Origin: Haliotis rufescens
Taxonomy: Eukaryota
Assembly: GCF_023055435.1 (NCBI RefSeq)
Contig: NW_025963835.1
Span: 2,790,001-2,854,000 of the forward strand
Direction of reading: 5' to 3'
Length of the DNA: 64,000 nt
How positions within the stretch are numbered: the first letter of the stretch is position 1; every line of letters begins with the position of its first letter. This document shows positions 11,800 through 59,455 of the stretch, piece after piece. A program made the position numbers and the translations under genes. A model generated the notes under the pieces. That model saw only the letters and a program-made list of their open reading frames with translations. It was not told where the DNA came from and ran no database searches.

Positions 11800-14700
11800 T
11801 AGTATATGGATTAATCTTATTCAGGGTCATAACAAATCACAGATGATATAATGAATGCAATATATTATCATGATTATGTTACATATCACAATACATGTGT
11901 CATTATTGCAATACGAAATTCAGGCCAATATCCATCTCTATGCATTACCTTGTCATCAATGGTAGCGGCAATGGGCATACAATCAAAGCACTCATTAACA
12001 GCATCCCAAATTTGCTGCCCTACACTGTCACCAAACTTGCTCAGACATTCCCTGCAAACAGAGAGTCAGATAGTCAATAAGGGCATGTTACAATACTGTC
12101 ATCAAATTGATAATGTCCTGTAAAAGATTCTGTAAATATAAAAGTTATAGAAAACTAAAAAAAATTGTGAAATGCAGAGTTATATTTTAAAACTTCTCCT
12201 TTATTATTAAATTATGCAGAAGAAGTGAACCCTGATCACTATGACCTTTCCCAATTAATAGATCATACACATATGGTGTGAAGTCTGCAACTTCAGCCCT
12301 GAGTCAAGCAAAATTGTTTTAGGTCTGGTAAGGTCAACTAAATATAGTCCACATACCAGCTCTATGATCTACTAGAAATGATGCCAAGAGAATTTCGAGA
12401 TACAGTGGTCCCTCGCTACAACGCTACCAATGGGGTCCAAATAATTGGTGGGCGTTATAGACGATGAGCCGTTTAACTGAGGCCGAGGGGGGGGAGCGCA
12501 CTCGGCCAATCTCACGATCTTCGCCTTGTCTTGCAGATTGCAATGATACAAGTTGTTTACCGTTCATAGTGTAAAAATATATATCCATTATGTTTTCGCC
12601 GTTTGTTATTATTTAAAAGCCTTAACTGTCACATTCAATGTGAATGTCGTCTACTTACATGAAAATATCGATCGATAATGGTAGTAACAGACGCTATGAG
12701 TGAAGAGCCAATCACAATTCATTACGCAAGTACAGAGTGATTCAGTGGCATTGATTGGTCATGTTGCTTAAAATACAGAAAATAAAGTTTTGACCAGCAC
12801 TACGCGCATTCATACACATTCATGCAAATATAGATACACATTCAAGCCAGATTAATTGGTTTGATACAGTTACTTGATCCGAATCAAAAGGAATGACCGC
12901 CGTGTTGTGACAGCAACTTTTACAAACCTGTAGAGGTTATGAATTCTCTGATGAAATCCTCCTTGGGGCACTTATTGCATTTTCCTTGCTCAAGAAAATC
13001 TATATGACATAGTTGTAACCATTTTCCTTAATAAAAAATGTTACCACACAAAAAACTTCGTTTTTGTATGATATACGACCACCCTTACGGGGCCTCACCC
13101 CCAACGGCGCCTCACGCCAGGGGGAGCAACTCTCACCCAAATCACTTTCCATATGTCAAATGCTGACGGAATGTGGGGAGGTGGGTGGCCGTGCCCCAAG
13201 GAGGATTTCATCAGAGAATTCATAACCTCTACAGGTTTGTAAAATTCTCTTTCTGATTAAATCCTCCTTGGGGCACTTATTGCATCAAGACAGACTCCCA
13301 AAGATAATCTAGGAAGTGGCATCCGTCAGCAACAGGCGTAAATAAATACATCGTATTTGATTATTCAACAGAATAAAATATTGAGTTCAATAAATGGAAC
13401 CAACCTTATCGTGAGGCACCACCGTCGAAAGGCGGGGGCTAGAGACAGGGCGTGGTCGACCATATATTATGATAAAGCCTGTTTTTGCGGCTTGTCATAA
13501 GTTGAGAACTCGAAACACCTCCCACCCCCCCACACTTTTTTGAACAAGTGATATAAGGGCGTAGATCACGAGAGACCATAACCAGCGCTGAGCTAGGCCA
13601 GAGGGTCCCCGAGGATCGAAGGAGTGCGTGCGCAAAATACGAGTATTATCGAGTAGTAAGGACTGATATTTATCGACCGCAGAAGATAAAATCCGGACCA
13701 TTACTGAGCAGTATAACCGGAAGACTGTCTAAAATCTCGAATGCTCAATCAGCTAGAGATTAGAACTTTGCCCAGTTCGGAGAACTGACTGACCAAACCG
13801 AGTACGCTCGCTTGAGTGTTTGTCGAGTTGGTAAGGTTTGATGAATCGTGCTCGGCTGGCTCCAAATAGCCGCGGAGCAGATCTGCTCAATGGGCAGAGC
13901 CGCGGCGTACGCTTTTGACGCAGCCACTGCTCTAACCTAATGAGCCTTCAACCTGGTAGGGGGGTCCCTGCCTGTAAGCGTATACGCTGTACAAATGTTT
14001 GAAACTATCCACCTCGAGATAGATTGTTTACTCGCAGGTGAGCCAACCTTCCTACCGCAGTAACAGCAAAATAGTTGGTTATCCTTACGGACACCCATAT
14101 TTCTGCTGATATAGGCCTTGAGAGTCGTGCGGACATCCAAGACATGAGCATGTCTTGCAGTGGTCCCCGACGAGGAAGGCTGTGAAAGAGCGGGTAGCTC
14201 AATAGGAGCCGTTCACGTGGAATCGTGTGCGACCCTAGGACGGTAATAGTCCGGTAGACGAAAACTGACTGTCCCGGTGATATTTATCGACCCCATGGAA
14301 GACAGTTATTTTGGGATCGGCTGACATAACACGAATGTCGCCTACCCGTCTGCCGGACGTTACCACCACAAGGAACGCCGTCTCCCAGCTCAACAGCTGA
14401 AGAGAGAGAGACGACAGATCCCGAAAGGAAGGACCGGACAGCCAATCTAGAATGATTGACAAGTCCCAAGGGGGACTGATCCGCCGGACTGGCGGTCGGA
14501 TCCTGTCCACACCTGCTAAAAAGCGCTGCACTAATGGGTGTGCACCCAGAAGTGCCCCGTCGACAGGGACGTGAAAAGCTGCGATAGCTGTAGAGTACCC
14601 TCGGACTGTTGATGCGGCCAGGCCGTCATCTAGTCGCGACTGGAGAAACTCAAGCACGGATACGAGATCTGCAGAAAAAAGATCTGCAATCCCTCTATCG

Positions 14701-17700
14701 ACACACCTGGGCGCATAGCAGGCCTATCTATCGTACTGAACGTTTGTCGAATCCCTCCGCGAAGCCAGTATTGTGTCTGCAACTCGTGCAGGAATACCGC
14801 TCTTCTGGAGGCGATTCCTGACAGTGGCCAAGCCACCCATTGAATCCTGAGATTCGGGTGGAGGGCCCCGTTCTGGGATAGGAGGTCCGGTCGTAAAGGT
14901 AATATAACAGGAGGCTGAGCCAGAAACCTGAGTATTACTGGAAACCCACTCTGCGCCGACTAAAGAGGTGCCAGGAGCACAATTAGTCGCGCAGGCTGAG
15001 TGCCTAGCTGAGACAGGACCTTGGAAATCAGAGGTACTGGGGAGAATGCCCACAGAACTGTCCGTCCAATCTAGCTGAAAGGCGTCCGGTGCCACCGACC
15101 TCGGGTCGTGGACTCGGGAGCAGAACGTTGGTGTCTGGTTATTTAACCCAGACGCAAACAGATCCACCTGTAACGACCTGTATAACAGGGAGAAAATCCC
15201 GAATATCCCCGGGTCGAGCCTCCACTCGTGAGGAGCGAGGATCCGGCAAGACAGAGCGTCCGCACGGACGTTGTCCACCCCCGGGAGATAAACAGGTAGC
15301 ACCCTGATATCGTGAGAGTCGCACTATAGTAGGAACTGCCACGTCTTTCGTCGAAGCGACGGAGACGCCGTTCCCCCCTGCTTCCGGATGTAAGTCATCG
15401 CCGTTTGGTTGTCCATCTCTAGACGAACCACTTGGCCACGAAGCAGATCCGGGAAGCGTTGGAACACCAACCTGACCGCTCTCAGTTCTAGCACATTGAT
15501 ATGCAGTTTGATCTCCTGCTGGGACCATAGTCCCGAGGCAGTGTGATCATTCAGAACGCCTCCCTAGCCGGAGAGTGACGCGTCTGTTTGAACTGTGAGA
15601 GACGGAACGGGAGTGATTCCCGACCTCGGTCCACCACTGGAGGTGTGTAATGAGCCACTACGGAGTCTCGAGCACAGTCTCGAGATCTTCCGAGTTCGCC
15701 CAAAGTCGACGGAGTGCTTGTTGAATGGGACTCATTCTCAAGCGCGCCCGCCAGACCAAATCCACTGTCGCCGCCATGTTGTCCAGTAACTGGAGCCATG
15801 TACGAGCAGTGTGACTTGCGCTTAAGGGACTTGATATCTTGTGACAGAGATACACGTCCTCTCACCGTGTTGAAATTAGCCACTAGGAAGACTAGATTCT
15901 GAGTGGGGCTCAGATCTGACTTCTTGAGATTGACCATCCACCCTAGAGTGATCAGAATATCTATCACTTGTTGTGTAGCTATCTGACTCAGGGATTGCAA
16001 TAGAGCTCTTAGTAACCTAGTCGTCGAGGTACGGATGGCAGAACCGACCTTTTGACCTGGCCACTTGGGCGGGAATCAACATCAGCTTGGTGAACACCCT
16101 CGGGGCCGTGGAGATCCCGAATGGTAGAACCCTGAACTGATAACACCTCCCGTCGAAAGAAAACCTCAGGTATTTCTTGAACTCTGGATGTATTGGTATG
16201 TGGAGATTGGCTAACGTCAATAGACTTAAAATACGCCTTTCTCCTGTCTCGACAGTTGAGATCACTGTTTGGTGACTAGGAAACAAGTCGAGTAGAAGCC
16301 CTCGCTTTCCTGTCCCTCGGGACCCGGTTCGATCGCAGCTTTCATAAGAAGTGCGTCGACCTCGGCACGGAGGAATTCCGCCTTCTCTCGGGTAGCAGGC
16401 ACCGGTGTGTGCTTTATCCCGGAAAAGTGGAGGAGCGGATGAGTTTTCCCGATAACTTGCGACTATGGGTTCACCCGGGGCTCTTCGGGCGCTAATGGGA
16501 ACCCATCGTTCCCAGCCCCGCGAAAAAGCTGTTGGCCTCGACCAGCTGCCTTGCCCCGGCCCGTGCCTCTCTTGCTCCTCACGGCGCCCTTATACCTGAA
16601 GGAAGCGGCGGCTTCCAAGCAGGTGTGGACGTCTGACCCGTGCGTTAGCGTAGGAGGGGACAATTGGAGAGGCCCGCTTACGCGGTTTTAACGCTTGGTA
16701 CCTCCAACAAGGCCTTATGAGTCTTTGATGGAAGTATACAATTGAGCAGCCTCTCGGACCGCCTGCTGAGCCCCAGGGAAGAGGGTGGCACCCTCTTATA
16801 CGGCAAAGCAAGTAGGTCTTGGCGTGTGTAAGTCGAGTATTTAGATACCGACATCCACCGCCTGCGCATGCACATAACAGCGCACATCATCTGCGATGCA
16901 CAGCTACGAATAGCGTCCCGCGCAAGATAATGTTAGTTGCGCGGCCAACTCCGAAGAGTCGGCCGGCCCCTCTCCCGCTAACTCCCTCTGTACAGCCGAC
17001 AGATACGCGGAGTGTACGGACACACGGAGCTGTTGGCATGCATTATGATATTGCTCCTCGAAGCATATGTAAGCAGCCTTCAACTCCGCACCGCACACGG
17101 GAAAGGGGGGGCAACCGCCGGCCCTGCTTGACCTTAGTCAAGTTGGATGTCTCCGACTCTGGCATGGGCGCAGCAACCTGAGGCAGTACATGGACAATCC
17201 TGTCCCGCACGTGTCTCTGCACCCGGCCCGAGGCCGAGTCCCGGTGCCGAGGTGCCGGAGGTTCAAGGGAACCCACCTGGCACTGGGCTAGGTATCCACT
17301 AGTGAAAGCCTTGGCCTCGGAAGAGGCGTCTGGCTCCGCTAGGGTAAATTGTGGGTCGGTAGTGCACGGGCCGGTGCCCGCCACCACTACGCTGGGGAGC
17401 GACCTCGAGCCGGAGCCGAAGCTCGGTCTCGGATCGTCCCCGAGACAAAGGGAACCAACCTGGCTCCGGGCTAGGTATCCACTAGTGGACGCCTCGGCCT
17501 CGGAAGAGGCGTCTGGCTCCGCTAGGGAAAATTGTGCGTCGGTAGTGCACGGGCCGGTGCCCGCCACCACTACGCTGGGGAGCGACCTCGAGCCGGAGCC
17601 GAAGCTCGGTCTCGGATCGTCCCCGAGACAAAGGGAACCAACCTGGCTCCGGGCTAGGTATCCACTAGTGGACGCCTCGGCCTCGGAAGAGGCGTCTGGC

Positions 17701-20700
17701 TCCGCTAGGGAAAATTGTGCGTCGGTAGTGCACGGGCCGGTGCCCGCCACCACTACGCTGGGGAGCGACCTCGAGCCGGAGCCGAAGCTCGGTCTCGGAT
17801 CGTCCCCGATACCAAGGGAACCCCCCTGGCTCCGGGCTACGAATCCACTAGTGAAAGCCTCGGCCTCGGAAGAGGCGTCTGGCTCCGCTAGGGAAAAATT
17901 GTGCGTCGGTAGTGCACGGGCCGGCGCCCGCCACCCCTCCGCTGGGGAGCGACCTCGAGCCGGCGCCGAAGCCCGGTCTGAGATCGTCCCCGAGACCAAG
18001 TTGCCTGCCTCGGCCGACGCCGGGCATATCACAAGGTCTCGAAGCCGCGTCCGGCGCCGACAACGGGGAAGGCTCGGTCCGCATCTCCTCTCGGAGCTGA
18101 GACTTTACCTCCTCCATCATCGACGCCATCTGCGACTTAAGTAACGCAGAAAAGTCTGCCAAAGACAGTGCAGGAGAGGGTGCAGTGCTTACTACGGGGA
18201 CCCTCGAGCCTTCTCCCCCGGCCCCCGGAGAGGGAGCGGGGGAGACAATCTCGGCAGCTTTTTTACCCTTTTTAGATGGGGAGGGGGGGATGTCTTAGTA
18301 GATCTGATATCTACCCCCGCCTTTAATAGACCTCTTTAAAGTGGAACAAGTCAACTTGTCTCTTTTGGGGGCCCCGGGGGGTAAAGGCAATGTCCTCCGC
18401 CAGACATATTCGGCAGCGTTCGTGCCTGTCTTAGAACAACCCGTACACAGTTTGAAGGTCTTGTAAACAAGACCGTAATTTCTGAGGTGGGCGGGAAGGG
18501 TATCAACGTGTATCAGTGCGATATAAAGATCGGAAAGAAACGTGCATAAATTGTGAAACTAGAAGCAAAGGCGTAATGTAGAATGCGATTTGTAACGCGA
18601 TACTAATAGCCAATGTGTAGTATAATTATAACACCAAAGGGGCGTGTTACGCGCTAAGGTGTAAAAACCCGTAAAAAAGGTAAGTGTAGTTTATGAATTA
18701 ACACACCACCTTGGGTTTTGTAAAGGAAAAAATTGTAGACCAATGCTGTATGATATAACAAAACCCCAAGCCGTTTCTTAATGGCCTTGGTGTTACATGT
18801 ATCAGCCCGTGGAACTACAATATGGACGCCATTACGGCCATTTGAATTCAAAGGTACCGTGCACGTGGCGTATTATTACAACTCTATAACTTCACAATGC
18901 GAGGTATTACGCCTTTGCAAAGAAAGAAATGTACCATACATACAGTTTGGTCAGCCATGGTTCTTGTCGAACGATAGATTTCTCTTATTTTTGTCTTGTG
19001 TGAAAAATCAACACGTCTGTCTCTTACAGATGACATAAGGAAAGTGATTTGGGTGAGAGTTGCTCCCCCTGGCGTGAGGCGCCGTTGGGGGTGAGGCCCC
19101 GTAAGGGTGGTCGTATATCATACAAAAACGAAGTTTTTTGTGTGGTAACATTTTTTATTAAGGAAAATGGTTACAACTATGTCATATAGATTTTCTTGAG
19201 CAAGGAAAATGCAATAAGTGCCCCAAGGAGGATTTAATCAGAAAGAGAATACATGTGAGTTGACAGTGTCGCCTCAAATTGGATTGCCCACTAATTAAGA
19301 AAATAAACTTCGCTTGTGGTTCTCTTTTATTGCATGCATGCTCTTCTAAGATCAAAGGATGTATAGTGTGAAAAGTTAACTAGTAGAACAATCATATTTC
19401 CGGGACTTGCCGCTGATGTTTTCAAACAGATTATTAGAACTCCATTCAACGATAAACGGTTGATTATGCAATGAGAAGCGTTATGTGCAAATGAACAACG
19501 AACAACAATACAATCACGGCTGTGTAAAATTCTCAGTATTATAAGTGTACATAAATTTTGGGAGCCATGCGATACCGCACGTAGTAACCGAGGTAGCGCT
19601 TTATCGAAGTGCCCAATAGCGAGGGATCACTGTAGCAGACTACGTTCTTGGCACAGCCTGGTAATGTCTGACGAACATATAAGTATGTCACTGTCAATCA
19701 GTTCCTAACACTAAGCCACTTACGTTTTGAAATGGAACATTTCTTGGACACTTCGGAGTTCATGGTTGCCTCTCAGCAGGAAGAACTTGTTTGGGGAGAG
19801 CAGCTTCTGGGCTAGGAGGTAGGACACGACCTGTAAACATGATCACATTCGTTAACAGCAAGCCCTGGGGAGAGCAGCTTCTGGGCCAGGAGGTAGGACA
19901 CGACCTGTAAACATGATCACATTCGTTAACAGCAAGCCCTGGGGAGAGCAGCTTCTGGGCCAGGAGGTAGGACACGACCTGTAAACATGATCACATTCAT
20001 TAACAGCAAGCCCTGGAGAGGAGGTAGGACACGACATGCAGACATGATCACATTCGTTAACAGCAAGCCCTGGGGAGAGCAGCTTCTGGGCCAGGAGGTA
20101 GGACACGACCTGTAAACATGATCACATTCGTTAACAGCAAGCCCTGGGGAGAGCAGCTTCTGGACCAGGAGGTAGGACACGACCTGTAAACATGATCACA
20201 TTCGTTAACAGCAAGCCCTGGGGAGAGCAGCTTCTGGGCCAGGAGGTAGGACACGACCTGTAAACATGATCACATTCTATAACAGCAAGCCCTGGGGAGA
20301 GCAGCTTCTGGACCAGGAGGTAGGACACGATCTGTAGACAGGATCACATTCTTACAGCAAGACCAGGGTTTCTTATTATGTGGTTATTAGATCCAATGAC
20401 AAAAGTTGATAAATGTGGAAATAATCTTGAACACAGTAGATAATCCTACTGTAATATTTTCAAATATTCGGCCACAGCTCAGTATTCAGAGTTTACCTAG
20501 TATCTGACAATGCCAACCAATTCACATTGAAAGAAAGTTTTCTTATAAAAATTTCTTTTTGCATTTATATGCAGTTACTCAATTCAGATTTGATACGTCT
20601 GATTGATTACAGGATATAAGGAGTTGAGTGTTGACGAGCTCACCTCAATGCCACACTCGCCCCTGTCGACGTAGTCCCCGAGGAACAGGAAGGAGGCTGG

Positions 20701-42687: not shown

Positions 42688-45600
42688 TTGCACGTCGCTA
42701 TATAAGTGCAATAATCTTGGACGCGACGTTAAACCCCATTTTACCTCATTACCTTGGGCATTCGCGAAACCAATGATAATGGATGGAAGCCAAACAAATT
42801 CTATAGTATGGGTACGGGTGCCCCTAGACTAACATTTAGTCTATGAAATCTCATGATATATAATACCCTTCTTGACTCTAAAAATAAAAAATAAAAATTT
42901 TCCCTATGCAAATTGTGGAGTAGAGCTGGCAGGCTTGCTTTTGTATACATTTCTAGATAGTTTTATAAATATATTCCACAGTCATGGTGCAGGACTAGGT
43001 GCCCCAGTTGTCTAAGGCATCACAATTTGCTGTGCAGAGTTACGCCCATTGGGCACACCATAATTCTAAGTGTGTGGCTTCTTATCCTCGTTTCCCCGAA
43101 TATGTTTCTCGGTTTGTCAGAACATGCCCTTCCTCATGGGTTTTACCAAAGTGGTGAAGGTCTAAGACCTGCATCACCTCAGGTTTCCTCCCACTTTAAG
43201 CTGACATGACTGTGTATAAGTGGAATGTTTTAGTCTGCTTTCAGTCGTACAAATGGGTATCTCTCATACCCTCACGTCTAGTCGCACGTTTAAGAGGAAG
43301 CCAGAAGCTGGAATGTAAACATTAAACTTGTTTCCGTCCGGTTGCGCACGCACCTCCCTATGACATGTCACAAATCTCTCAGCGCGCCTCTGCGCTGGTC
43401 GCTCGAGAAAGTCTTTCGCGGTAGACTGCTAGTTTGTATTCTACTAGTACTTATCGCTTATCTACAGTTGTTCTAATAAAGTAATAATATGTCTTACCTG
43501 TAGACTCCTGGAATGTAATCCTTGGTAATCCATTGTTTGTGTTCAACGCGTGTTTCGCTGTTTGACAGTGATTCTACACGTGGCAATATGTCGGGCATTT
43601 GTGCCTCGTGTCAACGAAAACTGTCTAAAGTAGACCCTCACAAGTATTGTCCTTCCTGCATCATTAAGGACGGGTTTTCAACGTGTTCGTGGAATAAACG
43701 TTGTAAAGAATGTGAAAACTTGTCTTCAATAAACTTTAACTTGTATCTTCGTGCGTTGGCGAAGCGGGCCGCTGACCAGCGCTACAAGCAGAGAAGGTCA
43801 TCGGTTGGATCCTTGGACTCTGCACCCTCCGCATCAGGCCCTGGGGGTGGCGAGTCGACCACACCTCAGAAATCAGTTGATAAAGACCCGCCTCAGTCAA
43901 CTTCAGTTTTCGACAAGACACGTGACCGTTCGCCTGCTGATGATACTACCCGCACGACTGGTCTTCGTCATTCGGTTGATCGAGAGCGTCACTCAGCCTC
44001 CCCCGTTACGACGGGACCGGGTGGTGACGAGGACCATGAGGGGACTACGGTCCCCAGTCGGTCCGTATCTCGTTCTACCAACGACATCGTAGGGACGTCG
44101 TGCGGGACGACAGTGGACACAGAAGTCGTTCCCGTTCAAGTCGGGACGACAGGACGAGTGCCTCGTCGAGAGACAGTACACGACACGAGGGCGTTCATCG
44201 TCATCGTGGTCGTCGAATGTACGATTCGGACGATAACTACGATGGGGATCGTAGTACTTCTACAGTTAGAGATCGTAGCCCTAGTCCCCACGGGGACGTG
44301 CGATGTTCTCGAAGGGAGTTTCGGGGAGTTCAGCGTCGTAGTGAAGATAGTGACAGAACGACGACCTCGTCTCACTTACATATCGACCCGGCTTTGATAG
44401 CCCAGATCACGGCGGCGGTCCTCGCCTCGACGGCGTCGACCAAGAAGGATACGACTACGTCGGGGGTCCATGGCCCGTCAACTAGTACAGCAGCTCCTTC
44501 ATCTACGCCTCCACACTCGACGTGTACAATGGATTGTGACGACAGCCCTCCTAGGCCTCCCATAGAACGATGACAACCCGACGCGTGCGGGCTTTAAGGT
44601 GGGAGATACACCGCAGTCTCTTCAGTTTTCTCCTCCCGATGTCTTCAGAGCCATGGCTCACGACATGGACCAGAACTTTGGCTCTGCTCTGCCTGGGCAG
44701 AGCTTCTGCAAGCCGCCTGGTCGATCTCGTTACCCGATCTATGGCATGCCGTTTTCGTCACCCATGACTACGGATTTGGACTGGGGGCTACTCTTCAAGA
44801 GACCAGCGCCCTCCACATTTGGAATCCTTGGACACTGCTGTTTGTCACCAGCTGCAAACGCTTGCTATGCTGTCGACAGCGATCAAGGCCCTCTCAGTGT
44901 ACTTTGAGGAGAAAGAACCCCAGGACGAGGACGACAGGACGGTGCCATCGGTCCTCACCTGTATGCAACGGTGGATCTCGGACGTCCTCGCCCAGTCCCG
45001 ATATGTATCGGGCCAGATTACTACGGCGCGTCGCCATGGTTACATCGACTGCACTGACCTACCTGATCGTCATGGCAGGTCACTCTTACGGGCCCCGTGG
45101 ACATCGCAACAGTTGTTCGACGGTCGTACCAACGACGTTCTGGACAAGTACTCCAGGGAAGCCGAGCGTGACATCATCATTTCGGCTTCACACAACCTGT
45201 CCAGACGGCCACCGGTTTCGAACGCCCCATGACGACGTTACCGAAACGAGAATGTGCAACGGGCCTTCCGTCCCTCGACAGCCGTCCCGCAAGAGAGATT
45301 CCGACAGGAAAGGTCGCCAGGTCTCCTTTCCAAGTTTCCCAGAGGGGGACAGTGCCAGCGGGGGAGGAAGTGAGGTCCCTTCCCCCGCCGTCGCCGTGGT
45401 TGGAGTCTCCCCCGGTGACACTACCTTTAGACGAGCTACCGGTAGGGGGCCGACTTCGTCACTATGCCCACAAGTGGGTTTTCCTCAACGACCCTTACGT
45501 TCAGAACATTTTGACAACAGGCTACGCCCCACGCCTGAGATCGACGCCACCACTGACGTCATCCCCGACATTCCACATTCCACCAACGGATCGGCTGACG

Positions 45601-48600
45601 GCGGCCATCGATTTGTTGGTGGAAAAGGCAGCCGTACTTCGCCTGGGGACATCGGCACCATCGCCGAGGTACTACTCGCCCATCTTTCTAGTACCCAAGA
45701 AAAACTCCACAAAGATGCGGCTTATTTTCAATCTCAAAAAGTTCAACGCAACATACCTCCAACCACCCAACACATTCACCTTGATATCCCTCAGCTCTCT
45801 GCGTCGGATGATATTACCGAACGACTTCCTCGTCTCGTTAGACCTTCAGGACGCGTATCTACATGTACCAATAGCTTCCGAGTTCCAGAAGTACCTCCGA
45901 TTCGAATACCAAGGTATTCCTTACCAGTGGGCGGCCCTCCCGATTGGAATTTCTACGGCCCCGTGCTTTTTCACACGGATCATGAAGACGGTCGTAGAAT
46001 GGCTCCATCAGCAGGCGATCAGGGTCGCCTTCTACCTAGACGACGGGCTCCAAGCTCACCAGTTTACAGAAGCCCTTCTACTACGGTACCTCGGGTGGAT
46101 CGTCAACTTTCAAAAGTCGGACTTGGTACCAACTCGGGTTCTACAGTACATTAGGATACGCTTCCAGACGGGAGTCAATCTGGTCCAGGTACCTCAAGAC
46201 CGTTGGGACAAGATTGTCAGCAGCGTTCCGAGACTTCTACATGCCTCGGCGTCGGTGCACACGTGGCAGGAAGTCCTCGGTCTGTTGACATCAGCCCAAG
46301 ACTTGACTTGACGAGGTCGTCTTCAACTTCGTCCGCTGCAGAGATTGCTGTACCCCCACCTGGAGTTTCCCAATCTCCTGGTTCCACTTCAGGCGCAGCT
46401 ACGTTGTCATCTGGAGTGGTGGCTTCAGCCGTCGAACGTTTGCGAAGGCGTCTTTATGAGCGAGCCTCCGTTCATACTACACCTATTCGTAGACGCGTCA
46501 TTGGAAGGCTGGGGAGCGCACTTCGGGGACGACCAAGCGGCCGGGCTGTGGTCGCCAGTAGAAAAGGTCCTCCACATCAACTGCCTCGAGATGGAAGCAG
46601 TGATTCGGGCAGTCGAGTTTTGGAAACTTCGAATCCGTCGGAAACGGCTGATGATACAGTCGGACAACTCCACAGTCGTCCACTGCGTCAACAAACAGGG
46701 AACAACTCAGTCGGCGGCCCTTCTGGACCGGACATTCAGGTTCTTCGCCCTTGTCGACGACTTGGACATGGGCGTACGCGCCCGTCACATCCCGGGGGCC
46801 AAGAATGTGATTGCCGACGCCCTGTCGAGACCATCGAGGCCGTCTCCCACGGAGTGGATGATCCATCCGACAGTCTTTCATCTGCTGACAGATCGACTCT
46901 GGTTGCCCCGTACAACAACCGCCTCCCTCGATTCGTGTCGCCGGTTCCAGACCCATGGGCATGGGACCACGACGCTCTAGCGATATCGTGGGGGGGGTCT
47001 AGACGCTTACGCGTTTCCACCAACGGTGCTGTTACCATCGCAACTGGTGAAAGTTCGTCAAACGGCCAACCTACGTCTGCTTTTGGTCGCGCCTTATTGG
47101 CCGGCCAGAACATGGTTCCCGGCACTTCTTCAAATCATCGATCAACCACCGTTCCCGTTGCCAGATCGAGACGACCTCCTTCTTCATCCTCACACCGACG
47201 ACTTGCATCCGGGGATAAAGAACTTCCAGCTTCGCGCCTGGGTTTGCTTAAGACCTCGTTAATGAAGGAAGGCTATTCGGCTAAAGCGGCAGCGCTTGTC
47301 TCGTCGGCACGACTCGTAAGCTGTAAGATGACAAGTGGACCACTTTCTCCATTTTTGCCAGGTCTCATGGCTTCATGGCTACAGGTGGCGGAGTTCCTAG
47401 TCTCTCTCCGGTCATCTCGGCGTCTGAAAGGGTCGACGATCTCGACATATCTGGCAGCTTTGGCTTCAGTAGTGCCGTCTCCTACGGGCGACAAGCTCAC
47501 TAACGTACCGGAGTTGCAGAAGATTCTACGTGCCTTCATGGTTGAAGATCAGTCACGTAAATTCCGACCGCCGGCCTGGGACCTTGATGTCGTTCTGCGC
47601 AACCTGTCTAGTCAGGCTTACGAGCCTCTCGATCAGGTCGCGTTCGACTTATTGTCTCAGAAAACGGTTTTCCTTCTCTCGCTGGCTACGGCTGCGAGAA
47701 TTACGGAAATACATGCCATTGGCGTCGGTCGGATTACGTTCGATCAGCGTAACCATGGCAACGTCCATCTTGGTCTCAGATGGGATTTTTTAGCGAAAAA
47801 TCAACTTCCTGGCCAAGATCCGAGAATGTTCAACATTCCTTCCTTGTCTGCCATTATGGGCCCTCATGATCACGCTGATCTCACCTTGTGCCCAGTTCGT
47901 GCGCTTCGTATTTACCTGCAGCGTTCTGAACAGCGACGACAACATTTTCGACGGCTGTTCATACCGCTCTCAACCAATGCAAAGAAAGAGATTACACGTA
48001 ATACTCTCTCATTTTGGTTGAGAGCGGAAATGCTCAGAGCTTACGAGGCGCAAGGACTCGCACCTCCCACCTCCTCTCATCCGCACGAAGTTCGAGCCTT
48101 CGCTTCAACATAAGCACTCCACAGTAATTGTTCGCTACAAGCTATTATGGAGGGCTGCTTTGGAGATCTACTTCAGTGTTTGCTTCGCATTATCTTAGAG
48201 ATATCTCCACAGAAGATGTTGAAGGACTCAAACAGTTTGGTCCACTCGTGGTGGCACAACAGATCTCTCAGAAAAGACAGTGAATTTGTGTTTTATTCAT
48301 TTTGGAGTTTTTGCTCGACACTTCGTGACATACTACAGGTTACAACAAAAGCTGTTGGTGAATGTACGCATTCTTATGGTTTTTTGTTGCGTGCAGTACT
48401 TCTGCTTTTTATTATGGTTATTCGGTGTATGCATCGTCTTCCCATACATTATAGTACTGCTCGTATTTTTTAGTTACTTTGTATACTGCGAGTTGCTCTG
48501 TAACTAAATTATGCGCCGACCTCACTTCGATCCGGGTTCAACTGACGTGTGCAGTTGTACTGTCACATCGATAATTAGTTGTGTGTCGAAGAGCATTACC

Positions 48601-51600
48601 CATGCTATTTTAGTTACCTTGTCTACAGCGAGTTCTGTAACTAAATTATACACCGACCACATTCCGATCGCAATTCAACTGATGTGTGCAGTTGTCCTGT
48701 CGCTTCGATAATTAGTTGTGAGTCGAAGAGCATTAAACATGCTGTTTTAGTTACCTTGTATACTGCGAGTTGCTCTGTAACTAAACTATTCGTCGACCAC
48801 ACTTCGATCGCAGTTCAACTGACGCGTGCAGTTGGCCTGTCGCATCGATAATTAGTTGTGTGTCGAAGAGCATTAACCATGCTGTGCGTTCGTGATAAAC
48901 AACTTGTCTCGTCCGTGCATCTGGTCGAATGTTCTATTGTCACTACAGGGGTGAGGAACTTGGTACATTCGACGTGAAAGTGGTCACTGCCTGATTACTT
49001 TCCCGACCCTCCTTCCAGTGTTCCGTCGAATTCTACCCATTTGTACGACTGAAAACAGACTAAAACATGGGTTTTTCAGATTAAAAACGATGTTTTATTG
49101 GTCTGTTTTCAGTCGTACGTTCCCACCCAGCCATCCCCACAGGGAAGTAATCCAGTCCAGTCCTGCTTGATGGCTTTTTCTTTGAGATTTGTGACATGTC
49201 ATAGGGAGGTGCGTGCGCAACCGGACGGAAACAAGTTTAATGTTTACATTCCAGCTTCTGGCTTCCTCTTAAACGTGCGACTAGACGTGAGGGTATGAGA
49301 GATACCCATTTGTACGACTGAAAACAGACCAATAAAACATCGTTTTTAATCTGAAAAACCCATACTGTTCAAAGCTGGGTTAAACCCAACTCACTCACTC
49401 TTACTGAAATTGCTGAAATACTGTTAATTGAGGCAACAAACCTCATCCACATCATCACTCCTTGTTTCAGTTACTCCAACTATCCCTTTCCCTATATTGT
49501 TGTAGCCCAATTTCTACATTTCAGAAACCTGTGTGACAAAGGATGCAAGCAGAAAGGATTCGGGATCTGAGACATTAGAGAAAGAAAGAATTCAAGAACA
49601 GAAAGGTATATAGAGGATATTTATCATCTAAAACTGGCTCCCACAGGAGATTTTGCTTGGATGAGATAAAGCAATATCTACAATGTAGATATCGCTGCAA
49701 TGAAATTACATCACAATGCTTTGCAGACCATTGTGACTTCACTGGTTACCATGACATCACAATCAAATGACATCACTAATGGCTCTGCTAATGAAGCTGT
49801 TAGCAGTTCTTTTTTACACTGAAGACACTGCTAATTATTGTCTACAAATTGAAAAAGTTGGTAGAATGATGTTGGATGATAAATAAAATCTCACCCTCTT
49901 GTCTTTTGATATCAAATATATCAACACTTGTTGATAAAAGTGACAAAAATCCTCGGCAAGCCTCGGAGTTTTCCCACTTTTATCAACTTGTGTTGATATA
50001 TTTGATATCAAAAGACACTCAGGTGAGATTCTCGATATCCCAGTACACGTCATGATGACAATTCCCCGAGCAGGAAGGTTCACACTTCCTGTTTTATGCT
50101 TTCTGCCTGTTGTAGTTCTCATTCCCTTCTTGCAGATTTCACTCAGCATGGTTCATGATGGCAGTAGTGTGACAATGCAGTATTGTATCGTAGTCTATAC
50201 AAGGTCCACAATACAATATATAGATTTACAACCCCTGTTTCGCGATACATATGTTGCGATATGATTTGTATCCCAATACAGTACCCGTGAAGATCCAGGG
50301 TAGAATAGGTCTTCAGCAACCCATGCTTGCCGTAAAAGGCGACTATGCTTGTCGTAAGAGGCAACTAACGGGATCCGGTGGTCAGGCTCGCTGACTTGGT
50401 TGAAGCATGTCATTGATCCCCATTGCGTGGATCGATGCTCATGATGTCAATCACTTGATTGTCTGGTCCAGACTCGATTATTTACAGACCAACATCATAT
50501 AGCTGGAATATTGCCGAGTACGGCGTTAAACAACAAACAACAACAACTATTATTTCATAAGTTGATATTTTTCTCCCAGCAGTTGAATCACAACCGTGAA
50601 TCGTTATCATACTACTTTGAATTTCAGACAACGAAGATGGGATATTGTAGGGCAGCAATATATAAGCTGGGGGGAACTGTGACTGTTATGCTATTTATAG
50701 CAAACAGGGAAATACTAGAGAATCAGCGTCAGCTGGTTGTTGAACAGATTCGTTTTGCCTTATCAAACCTGTTAATATTCACAAGTTTTTACATCAATAT
50801 AACTTGTAATGTAATGTATCATGAAACAGGGGTTTATTAATCGATGTATTGTATTGTGGCCCTTGTATATTGTATTGTCACGTCGTTACACTATCGCCAT
50901 ATTAGAGGACTGCCTGTGTGGTCTGATGGTAGAGCTTCTACCGGAGAGTTCAGGGTCCGGGGTTCAATCCCCGGCTGTGTCATACCAAAAGGGGGCAGTC
51001 GGGTAGCCTAGTGGTTAAAGCGTTCACTCGTCACGCTGAAAACCCGGCTTCGATTCCCGACATGGGTACCATTTCTGGTGTCAGCCGCCGTGATATTGCT
51101 AAAAGTGGCATAAAATCAAACTCTCTCACTCACACTGAAAGGCATTAAAAGATGGTACTTGTTGTTACCCTGTCTGGCATTCAGCTTTAAGGGGCTAAAA
51201 CGAGGATTGGTCGGCTCATTGTCAGTATACAGTGTCTGAGAGGGGTATTCATGTTGAACTGTGGCATGGTATCTCAGTACGCTAGCAATATCAGATCGGC
51301 ATCCGTCCGGACTAGTACAAGCAGTCACACATACTCACACATGTGAATGCACATTGCTGAATAAGTGCAATTATCTTGAACGTGATGTTAAACCCAATTT
51401 CACCTTACTTCACCTTTATAAGAACGCCTTAAACCGTGAAACATCAACTATAAATGTTTGTTACCATGGTTACAGAGGAGGGTGAGCTGTCAGACGTGGA
51501 GCTTGAGACAACGGAAGACAAAGTGGAGCGACACCTGCTGGAGAAACTAGGTATCGTCACTATCGTGTGTCCAATACAATATATCAAGTTCGTTGTTGAT

Positions 51601-58649: not shown

Positions 58650-59455
58650 TAAATCATAGCTACTAACACCAAGGTTGATCCTTCTTTCCGTATTTTGGCT
58701 AGGCACCTCCCTATCATACAAAAGGGGAAACGCGTATGCTTGTTTCCCTGTCCATGGGACTGAGAAGGCGTCGATCTGACATGAGTGAGAATCCGGCCTC
58801 CAACTGACATACTTGTCTACCTGGAGATTTAGCCTGTCTGGAAACAGGTCGACTTGGAATGGGCCCCACAGCTGATTTATCTGGTGCAATATGGACTTCT
58901 TTAGCATCCAACTGCTGTCGTCTTTGCATTTCCTGGATATCCCATCGATCCCAATTGCGTGGATCAATGCTCATGATATCAATCACTGGATTATCTGGTC
59001 CAGACTTGATTATTTACAGAGAGCCGTCAAAAAGCTGGAATATTGCTGAGTGCGGCGTAAAACAACAAACCAATCCTGGATTCACAATCCGCCTGGGTAT
59101 TGTCTTTCCCTGGGAGGTATTCAGTCTCTTCATGCAGAATTCCCATATCTGTTGAGCTAGATTGACTAGTGATACTGATTTCGTCCCGCCTTTCTTGTTG
59201 ATATATGCGACAACTGTTTTGTTGTACATTCGAATATGGACCTGTATTTGTGTCTTGTCTTTGGTAAATGTCTTTAGGGCTAGTAGTCCCGCTTTGAGTT
59301 CCAGAACGTTGCTATGGTTTTTCTGTTCTGACAGGCTGCATTGTCCTCTTGTGCTCTACTTTTGACAAACTGCTCCCCAAACTAATAGTGACGAGTCGGT
59401 TGTGATCGTGAGGTTAGGGCTCAGGTTGATGAACGACTTCCCGTTCCATAATGAC
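58650..59455 (-). mobile_element. DIRS RNase H/methyltransferase fragment (third DIRS), interrupted by a SINE
   Basis: WNGKSF..TDSSLLVWGA, NKTVVAYINKKGGTKS, WGPFQVDLF..YVSWRPD..DAFSVPW..YAFP. Confidence 0.85.

Follow-up and report, generated by a model that had tools for sequence, protein, structure and literature searches.

A four-run C-rich tract at the internal repeat junction of DIRS1-like and Ngaro-like retrotransposons and its possible role as a cDNA G-quadruplex stop

Ever since the first DIRS-1 model, it has been an open question how retrotransposons of the DIRS order, which have neither tRNA primers nor integrase, complete their cDNA and fix its ends. DIRS1-like elements are described as having ITRs and an ICR whose left and right parts overlap at a circle junction common to both, with a right extension and a core shared by all four repeats (available text of Piednoel 2011, PMC3266345, and Malicki 2020, PMC7192593). 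For DIRS-1 itself, the available text of PMC7192593 reports that the cDNA is single-stranded and mostly linear, that the ICR is needed after first-strand synthesis, and that no primer is known. Ngaro-like elements carry split direct repeats in the order A1..B1A2..B2, with an internal copy of the junction (available text of PMC6681497 and PMC4157794). The available portions of the two DIRS1-like descriptions mention no flanking helix, C-rich tract, or quadruplex, and those of the two Ngaro-like descriptions do not mention the tract. Here, we report that in most families of both designs the internal junction copy is followed by the same C-rich tract of four runs, and that in many DIRS1-like families a helix, the clamp, pairs across the ICR.

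Two DIRS1-like retrotransposons lie in the window (the whole 64,000-nucleotide stretch of Haliotis rufescens DNA analyzed), each recognized by ITR and ICR self-matches and an RT match. Element 1 (12918..19250, minus strand) has its left terminus at 19031..19250 (ITR 19031-19242 plus outer bases; first letters ATT), its right terminus at 12918..13158 (ITR 12947-13158 plus the right extension), and its ICR at 13191..13285, where segments of 42 and 54 nt match both termini at 100% and an 18-bp outer stem forms; its ORFs are interrupted by stops and frameshifts. Element 2 (43225..49363, plus strand) has its left terminus at 43225..43378, its right terminus, again ITR plus right extension, at 49184..49363, and its ICR at 49034..49118 (35 and 52 nt, 18-bp outer stem). 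Its first letters are ATG, and ATG is also its circle junction, in contrast to the NTT usual in published DIRS1-like ICRs, as far as their available text goes. Self-alignment gives ITRs of 212 nt at 99% identity in element 1 and 157 nt at 97% in element 2, with the ICR 97 to 100% identical to the termini and a circle junction in both; the right extension and the core shared by all four repeats are as in the described elements.

RVT_1 was found in both elements and scored above the cut-off in family copies with open frames. Matches below the cut-off comprised RNase H in family copies, Dam (E=7e-4) in a copy of the element 1 family (L051), and Phage_integrase (E=1e-4) in a copy of the element 2 family (L032), which also carries RVT_1 and has no Dam match. 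The YR region of element 1, itself without a Pfam match, is 30% identical to that of element 2 by tblastn. An earlier note on this DNA had called the two elements unrelated; they are instead distant relatives, with pol and YR segments 30 to 47% identical, though self-alignment of the window detected no DNA similarity between them. An Rfam scan of the window for known structured RNAs and ribozymes returned 0 matches at the gathering score, and no relatives were found in viral contigs. The window also holds a third DIRS-like pol fragment (59161-59412, minus strand; 32% to element 2), tandem repeats of ~183-nt units in the first ORF of element 1 (17265-18000) and of ~139-nt units upstream of the element 2 ICR (48468-48885), and an array of 32-nt units that starts at ~22600 and runs for ~2.5 kb (76 registers listed). 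Small-RNA reads on element 1 are sparse (5, 210, and 7 per run) and mostly antisense, with no joints, and carry no information about the clamp; in one run, ~31-nt antisense reads, of piRNA-like size, pile up at 13594-13624 and nearby. Locus L043 (~1400-1850) has a terminus of the element 2 family adjoining the right end of a copy of another DIRS family, consistent with DIRS elements inserting at DIRS ends.

Read in the sense direction, the ICR of each element is flanked by the same series of features. Element 1 has, all on the minus strand, a clamp 5' arm (13322..13331), a weak C-rich strand directly 3' of it that we call strand A (13312..13319; it escapes the stricter C-rich pattern used for family counts), the ICR, a C-rich tract B (13173..13188; C-runs 2-3-2-4) starting 2 nt past the ICR, and a clamp 3' arm (13161..13170). 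The plus-strand counterparts in element 2 are the 5' arm at 48993..49004, strand A at 49007..49016, tract B at 49122..49140 (3-3-2-4, from 3 nt past the ICR), and the 3' arm at 49142..49152. Both clamps had been proposed in the earlier note, and their positions and pairings are borne out: 13322-13331 with 13161-13170 is a perfect 10-bp pairing, and 48993-49004 with 49142-49152 gives 11 bp with one bulged T. The distance from 5' arm to ICR is 30 nt in element 2, in line with the ~30 claimed, and 36 nt in element 1 rather than ~33; the 3' arm directly follows CCCCACA in element 2, as claimed for both, whereas 1 nt intervenes in element 1. That note had covered neither strand A nor the quadruplex pattern on the opposite strand, nor the sharing of the tract, without the clamp, by Ngaro-like elements.

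For comparison, we gathered loci by protein similarity only, never by motif, from the same genome, from metagenome contigs (80 retained out of 451), and from contigs of a genome collection (23), adding further loci from two of the collection genomes. The nearest named pol relatives were mollusc proteins. Thirty short loci from the same genome and three others were left out of the ICR step; 182 loci were examined, of which 102 had an ICR and enough flank and 80 were dropped (47 with no ICR, mostly because contigs ended early, 23 with no YR, 5 with a short stem, and 5 with a short flank). The 102 loci represent 49 families with a median pol identity of 37%, nine of them from the same genome. The pol tree was quick and unfinished, with an unreliable row for element 1, and we claim no origin or loss from it. 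Several bacterial genome bins (G001-G005; L151-L173) carry eukaryotic retrotransposon contigs, with 136 RT-like matches in G001, which points to host contamination.

The tract, its position beside the ICR, its four-run form, and the helix recur across these families. We searched the first 48 nt past the ICR and took control windows from the same elements (n=315). The pattern CCC[AGT]CC..CCCC was present in 34 of 49 families and in none of the 315 controls; of the 49, 39 have a looser bipartite C-rich form and 37 a four-run form, each against 3/315 controls. The literal CCCACC..CCCCACA proposed earlier as the conserved motif occurs in only 3 of 49 families; what is kept is the four C-runs. Exactly four are present in 34 of the 41 families with an anchorable tract, mostly as 3-3-2-4 or 3-2-3-4, and in 26 of these 34 the C total is exactly 12, enough for three tetrads. 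Loops are mostly 1 to 2 nt, and single-base loops may be A, T, or G, free in letter. The bipartite tract is not universal, being absent from 10 of 49 families, including the whole two-member clade of L167 and L168; L167 pairs strongly across the ICR despite lacking a C-rich tract. Small hairpins form within tract B, between C-runs, in L041, L181, and L183.

Position is likewise constrained. In the clade of the window elements, the gap between the end of ICR/terminus identity and the tract is 2 to 10 nt in 14 of 15 pattern-matched families (2 nt in element 1, 3 nt in element 2), the remaining family having scored 31 because its first C-run was missed. Upstream of the ICR hairpin, an A[AGT]TC word, often as GAAGTC or AATTC, lies within the last 20 nt in 36/49 families (80/487 controls). 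By eye, we rejected an HDV-like ribozyme (no short catalytic joining strand follows the hairpin) and a C-rich 3' splice tract (no constant AG).

Pairing between the two clamp arms was assessed by ranking each native upstream/downstream pair among its cross-family pairs. Without anchors, the native pair fell in the top 5% in 19 of 49 families (2.5 expected; p=2e-12) and outscored a control shifted upstream (p=1e-4); a control shifted downstream was not exceeded (p=0.17). Long-window RNAduplex energies were too noisy for the clamp, with native pairs barely apart from controls (top 5% in 8/49, displaced controls not beaten), and compact-helix scores were used instead. With strand A and tract B as anchors and a threshold of at least 7 of 9 positions paired, 21 of 35 families paired, compared with 65 of 1,190 cross-family pairs, and 14 of the 35 fell below it. 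The helix begins 0 to 5 nt past the last C-run in 19 of 21 well-paired families. Its arms are only 26% identical across families and use all four Watson-Crick pair types. Each window clamp scores above all 80 of its cross-family pairings, and six of the eight families from the same genome alone pair. Within the element 1 family, 3 of 12 copies carry A-U in place of U-A at one clamp pair; a second double change, in one copy at a CpG where four copies are unpaired, may be two decays. A second helix joining the post-ICR spacer with strand A or with pre-ICR bases was not supported (p=0.58, 0.42, 0.12).

We considered whether these patterns could reflect chance or pattern-fitting, given that they were written after the first families had been seen and that folding models often lack the clamp. 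In a permutation of the anchored test, none of 20,000 rounds reached 21 paired families (maximum, 10); the excess persists with the window elements left out (19/33 native versus 60/1,056 cross-family) and in foreign contigs alone (15/27 versus 44/702); control windows yielded the tract patterns in only 0 to 3 of 315 cases; and the out-of-sample test on Ngaro-like elements described below contradicts this explanation. Chance or pattern-fitting is therefore hardly credible, and the clamp pairing is more than chance. The outcome that the earlier note had named as refuting its proposal, a lack of pairing enrichment, was not observed, since native pairs exceed cross-family controls; the data support its proposal of a conserved cis-element at the ICR.

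On which strand the clamp acts is another matter. Folded alone, arm to arm, both window clamps form; in sense RNA with at least 30 nt of flank, neither is predicted (P ~0), the 5' arm being sequestered in local hairpins. On minus-strand DNA the element 1 clamp is predicted (0.92-1.0), whereas that of element 2 has P=0 on either strand in folding models. Among 19 well-paired families with 30-nt flanks, the clamp exceeds P=0.5 in 7 as sense RNA, in 8 as minus DNA, and in 10 with quadruplexes allowed. An unanchored wobble test leans toward the sense strand (p=0.006), the direction favoring RNA, and anchored strand tests show no significant lean (p=0.51, 0.26). The clamp strand is not settled by G-U counts, and the strand and role of the clamp are the weakest part of the model proposed below.

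These data bear directly on a reading in which the feature is an RNA site. The transcript's clamp would present C-patches A and B to the element's Gag or RT, or to a host KH protein that binds poly(C), with packaging, stability, or positioning as the function served. Sites bound by PCBP in alpha-globin and poliovirus RNAs resemble C-patches beside the clamp. Strand A, just 3' of the clamp 5' arm, is C-rich in 36 of 49 families (16 of 149 controls) and shares a CCCRCC-like word with tract B; G-U pairs outnumber A-C mismatches 16:8, the unanchored z favors the sense strand, and the C-patches, as putative binding sites, lack a partner in the elements' 3' regions. Against this, anchoring leaves the wobble excess short of significance (16:8 versus 336:269 in controls, p=0.30), and the clamp is predicted in the sense RNA of neither window element; the "RNA architecture" of the earlier note is thus unsupported, the element 1 clamp being predicted on the minus DNA strand and not on sense RNA. 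Nor does an RNA site explain the exactly four runs summing to 12 or the base-exact boundary at the 5' edge of the tract; on RNA, a block would halt first-strand synthesis at the opposite edge. We consider this reading unlikely. Element 1 has a G-rich sense-strand stretch (~13515-13535) ~240 nt upstream of the ICR, kept in its subfamilies, as a possible pairing partner of tract B; a partner of this kind is not general across families.

The complement of the tract has the four G-runs (34 of 41 families) and short loops of a G-quadruplex-forming sequence. In 37 of 41 families the minus strand reaches a G4Hunter score of 1.2 or more, and a quadruplex is present in the minus-DNA MFE in 15 of 19 well-paired families; a canonical G3x4 tract occurs in only 2 of 41 ITR-type families. 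In element 1 the G-runs lie on the window's plus strand, i.e., the cDNA strand, which has 11 G over the tract, and its quadruplex may have only two tiers. In line with a quadruplex, a search of the elements' own 3' regions for a G-rich partner of tract B found none (20.9 vs 20.8). From these patterns, the complement of the tract on single-stranded minus-strand cDNA is likely to fold into a G-quadruplex.

Ngaro-like split-direct-repeat elements were fetched as a control, with the four-run pattern fixed beforehand on the ITR-type families. An A1/A2 pair was recovered in 18 of 60 loci, which fall into 14 families with a median pol identity of 36%; B was also recovered in 15 of the 18. Phage_integrase was found in 4 of 5 YR frames scanned, and 2 of 2 pol frames have RVT_1 and no Dam; L255 carries a GDSL hydrolase-like frame. 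At A2, a four-run tract begins 0 to 1 nt beyond the point where A1/A2 identity stops in 16 of 18 loci; counted by family, this holds for 14 of 14 when any member is accepted and for 13 when the first member is taken. After A1, it was found in 0 of 18. The runs are 3-3-3-3 in 6 of 18 loci. No clamp was detected in these elements (p=0.25, n=13). In a second ITR clade, the right ICR/terminus identity ends at the first C of the tract in 5 of 5 cases (four by pattern, L202 by eye). Members of this clade (L194-L203, from G001) have a longer gapped ICR hairpin and a small hairpin near the junction; several have long clamps, with no strand A and with tracts that have a long central loop.

We propose, with slightly better than even confidence, that copying of the internal junction template is brought to a halt by a G-quadruplex in the minus-strand cDNA, with the clamp assisting in ITR-type elements. 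The cDNA 3' end would copy the ICR, and in Ngaro-like elements the plus strand would copy B1A2. A polymerase on the minus-strand junction template would head toward the tract, first meeting the complement of the first C-run. G-quadruplexes arrest polymerase at their near edge, and the 5' edge of the tract is the edge first met on the minus template; an RNA-level block would instead mark the other edge. The polymerase would halt at the quadruplex, leaving a product whose 3' end coincides with the end of the repeat, and this 3' end, matching the terminal repeat, could be joined or transferred like the strong-stop DNA of LTR elements. The repeat boundary would be base-exact because the terminal repeat of each new copy would be rewritten up to the arrest point. 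More loosely, the clamp would close the ICR into a loop and bring a second G-rich strand, the complement of strand A, beside the quadruplex; clamp and extra G-tracts would stabilize the weaker 4-2-3-3 tracts found in the clade of the window elements and might explain the gap of 2 to 10 nt. Counting against the model are the scarcity of canonical G3x4 tracts among ITR-type families, the families with no bipartite tract or with poor clamp pairing, the folding predictions for the clamp, above all that of element 2, the weak duplex energies, the downstream-shifted control, the sense-leaning unanchored wobble test, and, in the clade of the window elements, an identity that mostly stops 2 to 10 nt short of the tract.

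A priming role, which the earlier note had offered along with circularization, leads to a different reading, the closest to that note's own: the transcript would prime on itself, its 3' end annealing next to tract B on the outer ICR arm and being extended with the RNA ICR as template, while the clamp would set a template boundary as in telomerase. The tract adjoins the junction template in all three designs, and no DIRS primer is known according to the available text of PMC7192593. Many families also carry a U1-complementary sequence resembling a 5' splice site ~9 to 14 nt into the right terminus that could define a 3' end. The right ICR arm has ACTTACC, ACTCACC, or ACCTACC in 26 of 49 families (4 of 197 controls), with near forms, some with a one-base bulge, in 11 more and the complement in the left ICR arm of 6. 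Read as the right terminus, the site is G/GTRRGTAT, which we take to match the U1 snRNA 5' end; +7 A and +8 T are each present in 21 of 25 cases and are not kept in the left arm. Carriers include L041, L071, L083, L129, L148, and L152-L154, among others, and the site may define where the RNA ends or prevent polyadenylation. A second splice-donor-like word, GGTGAGT, was seen by eye, and not counted, ~70 to 100 nt upstream of the ICR and upstream of the clamp in L139, L141, L148, L150, L153, L160, and L164.

However, the U1-like site is absent from both window elements, Ngaro-like elements have neither the clamp (p=0.25, n=13) nor the U1-like site, and the tract sequence varies between families, so that no single host primer fits. 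Moreover, DIRS-1 lacking its ICR still makes first-strand cDNA (available text of PMC7192593), which disfavors priming. Such primer landing is, in our estimate, distinctly improbable; a role in completing or joining ends does fit.

A further reading treats the tract as a double-stranded promoter, its CCC(A/G/T)CC words serving as Sp/KLF-type boxes, e.g., for antisense transcription from the right ITR, with the clamp a separate feature. The core word matches GC/GT boxes, and one run has antisense small RNAs on element 1. A promoter would not account for a base-exact junction with the repeat end, for a fixed orientation, or for a helix so close past the last run (0 to 5 nt) in 19 of 21 well-paired families, and we regard it as very improbable.

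Returning to the quadruplex stop, we advance its general form more tentatively, as a possibility somewhat short of even: in both end designs of tyrosine-recombinase retrotransposons, a G-quadruplex in the element's own cDNA would act as a tRNA-free strong stop that sets the repeat boundary to the base, with ITR-type elements building a duplex-quadruplex junction with the clamp and many adding a U1-bound site in the right terminus that marks the RNA end. If true, a non-canonical DNA structure would be maintained as a functional component of a replication cycle. A signal kept at ~37% pol identity and across two end designs offers a small, defined target for biophysics, stop assays, and mutation, and the tract can serve in practice to locate element ends during annotation.

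In the available parts of the DIRS and Ngaro literature, we found no description of the tract, clamp, quadruplex, or U1 site, and a C-rich tract may be mentioned in older founding work (Cappello; Goodwin and Poulter; Poulter and Butler); a preprint on non-B DNA in birds, in its available part, reports Z-DNA, not quadruplexes, in Ngaro. This is a real and apparently undescribed cis-element of a known retrotransposon order. Compared with the window elements, Ngaro-like elements have direct repeats, commoner canonical G3 tracts, zero gap, and no clamp. The template-boundary helix of telomerase RNA is likewise a long-range helix that closes a loop around a template, and poly(C)-binding protein sites likewise set C-patches beside a helix; neither has a sequence or family match here (Rfam, 0), and the working strand here may be DNA. 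In LTR retroelements, plus-strand strong stop is a defined stop at the end of the copied repeat that leaves a 3' end ready for strand transfer, and the stop proposed here likewise falls at the end of a copied repeat. The LTR stop is set by the tRNA primer, whereas in DIRS elements, for which no tRNA primer is known, the proposed stop is a DNA structure.
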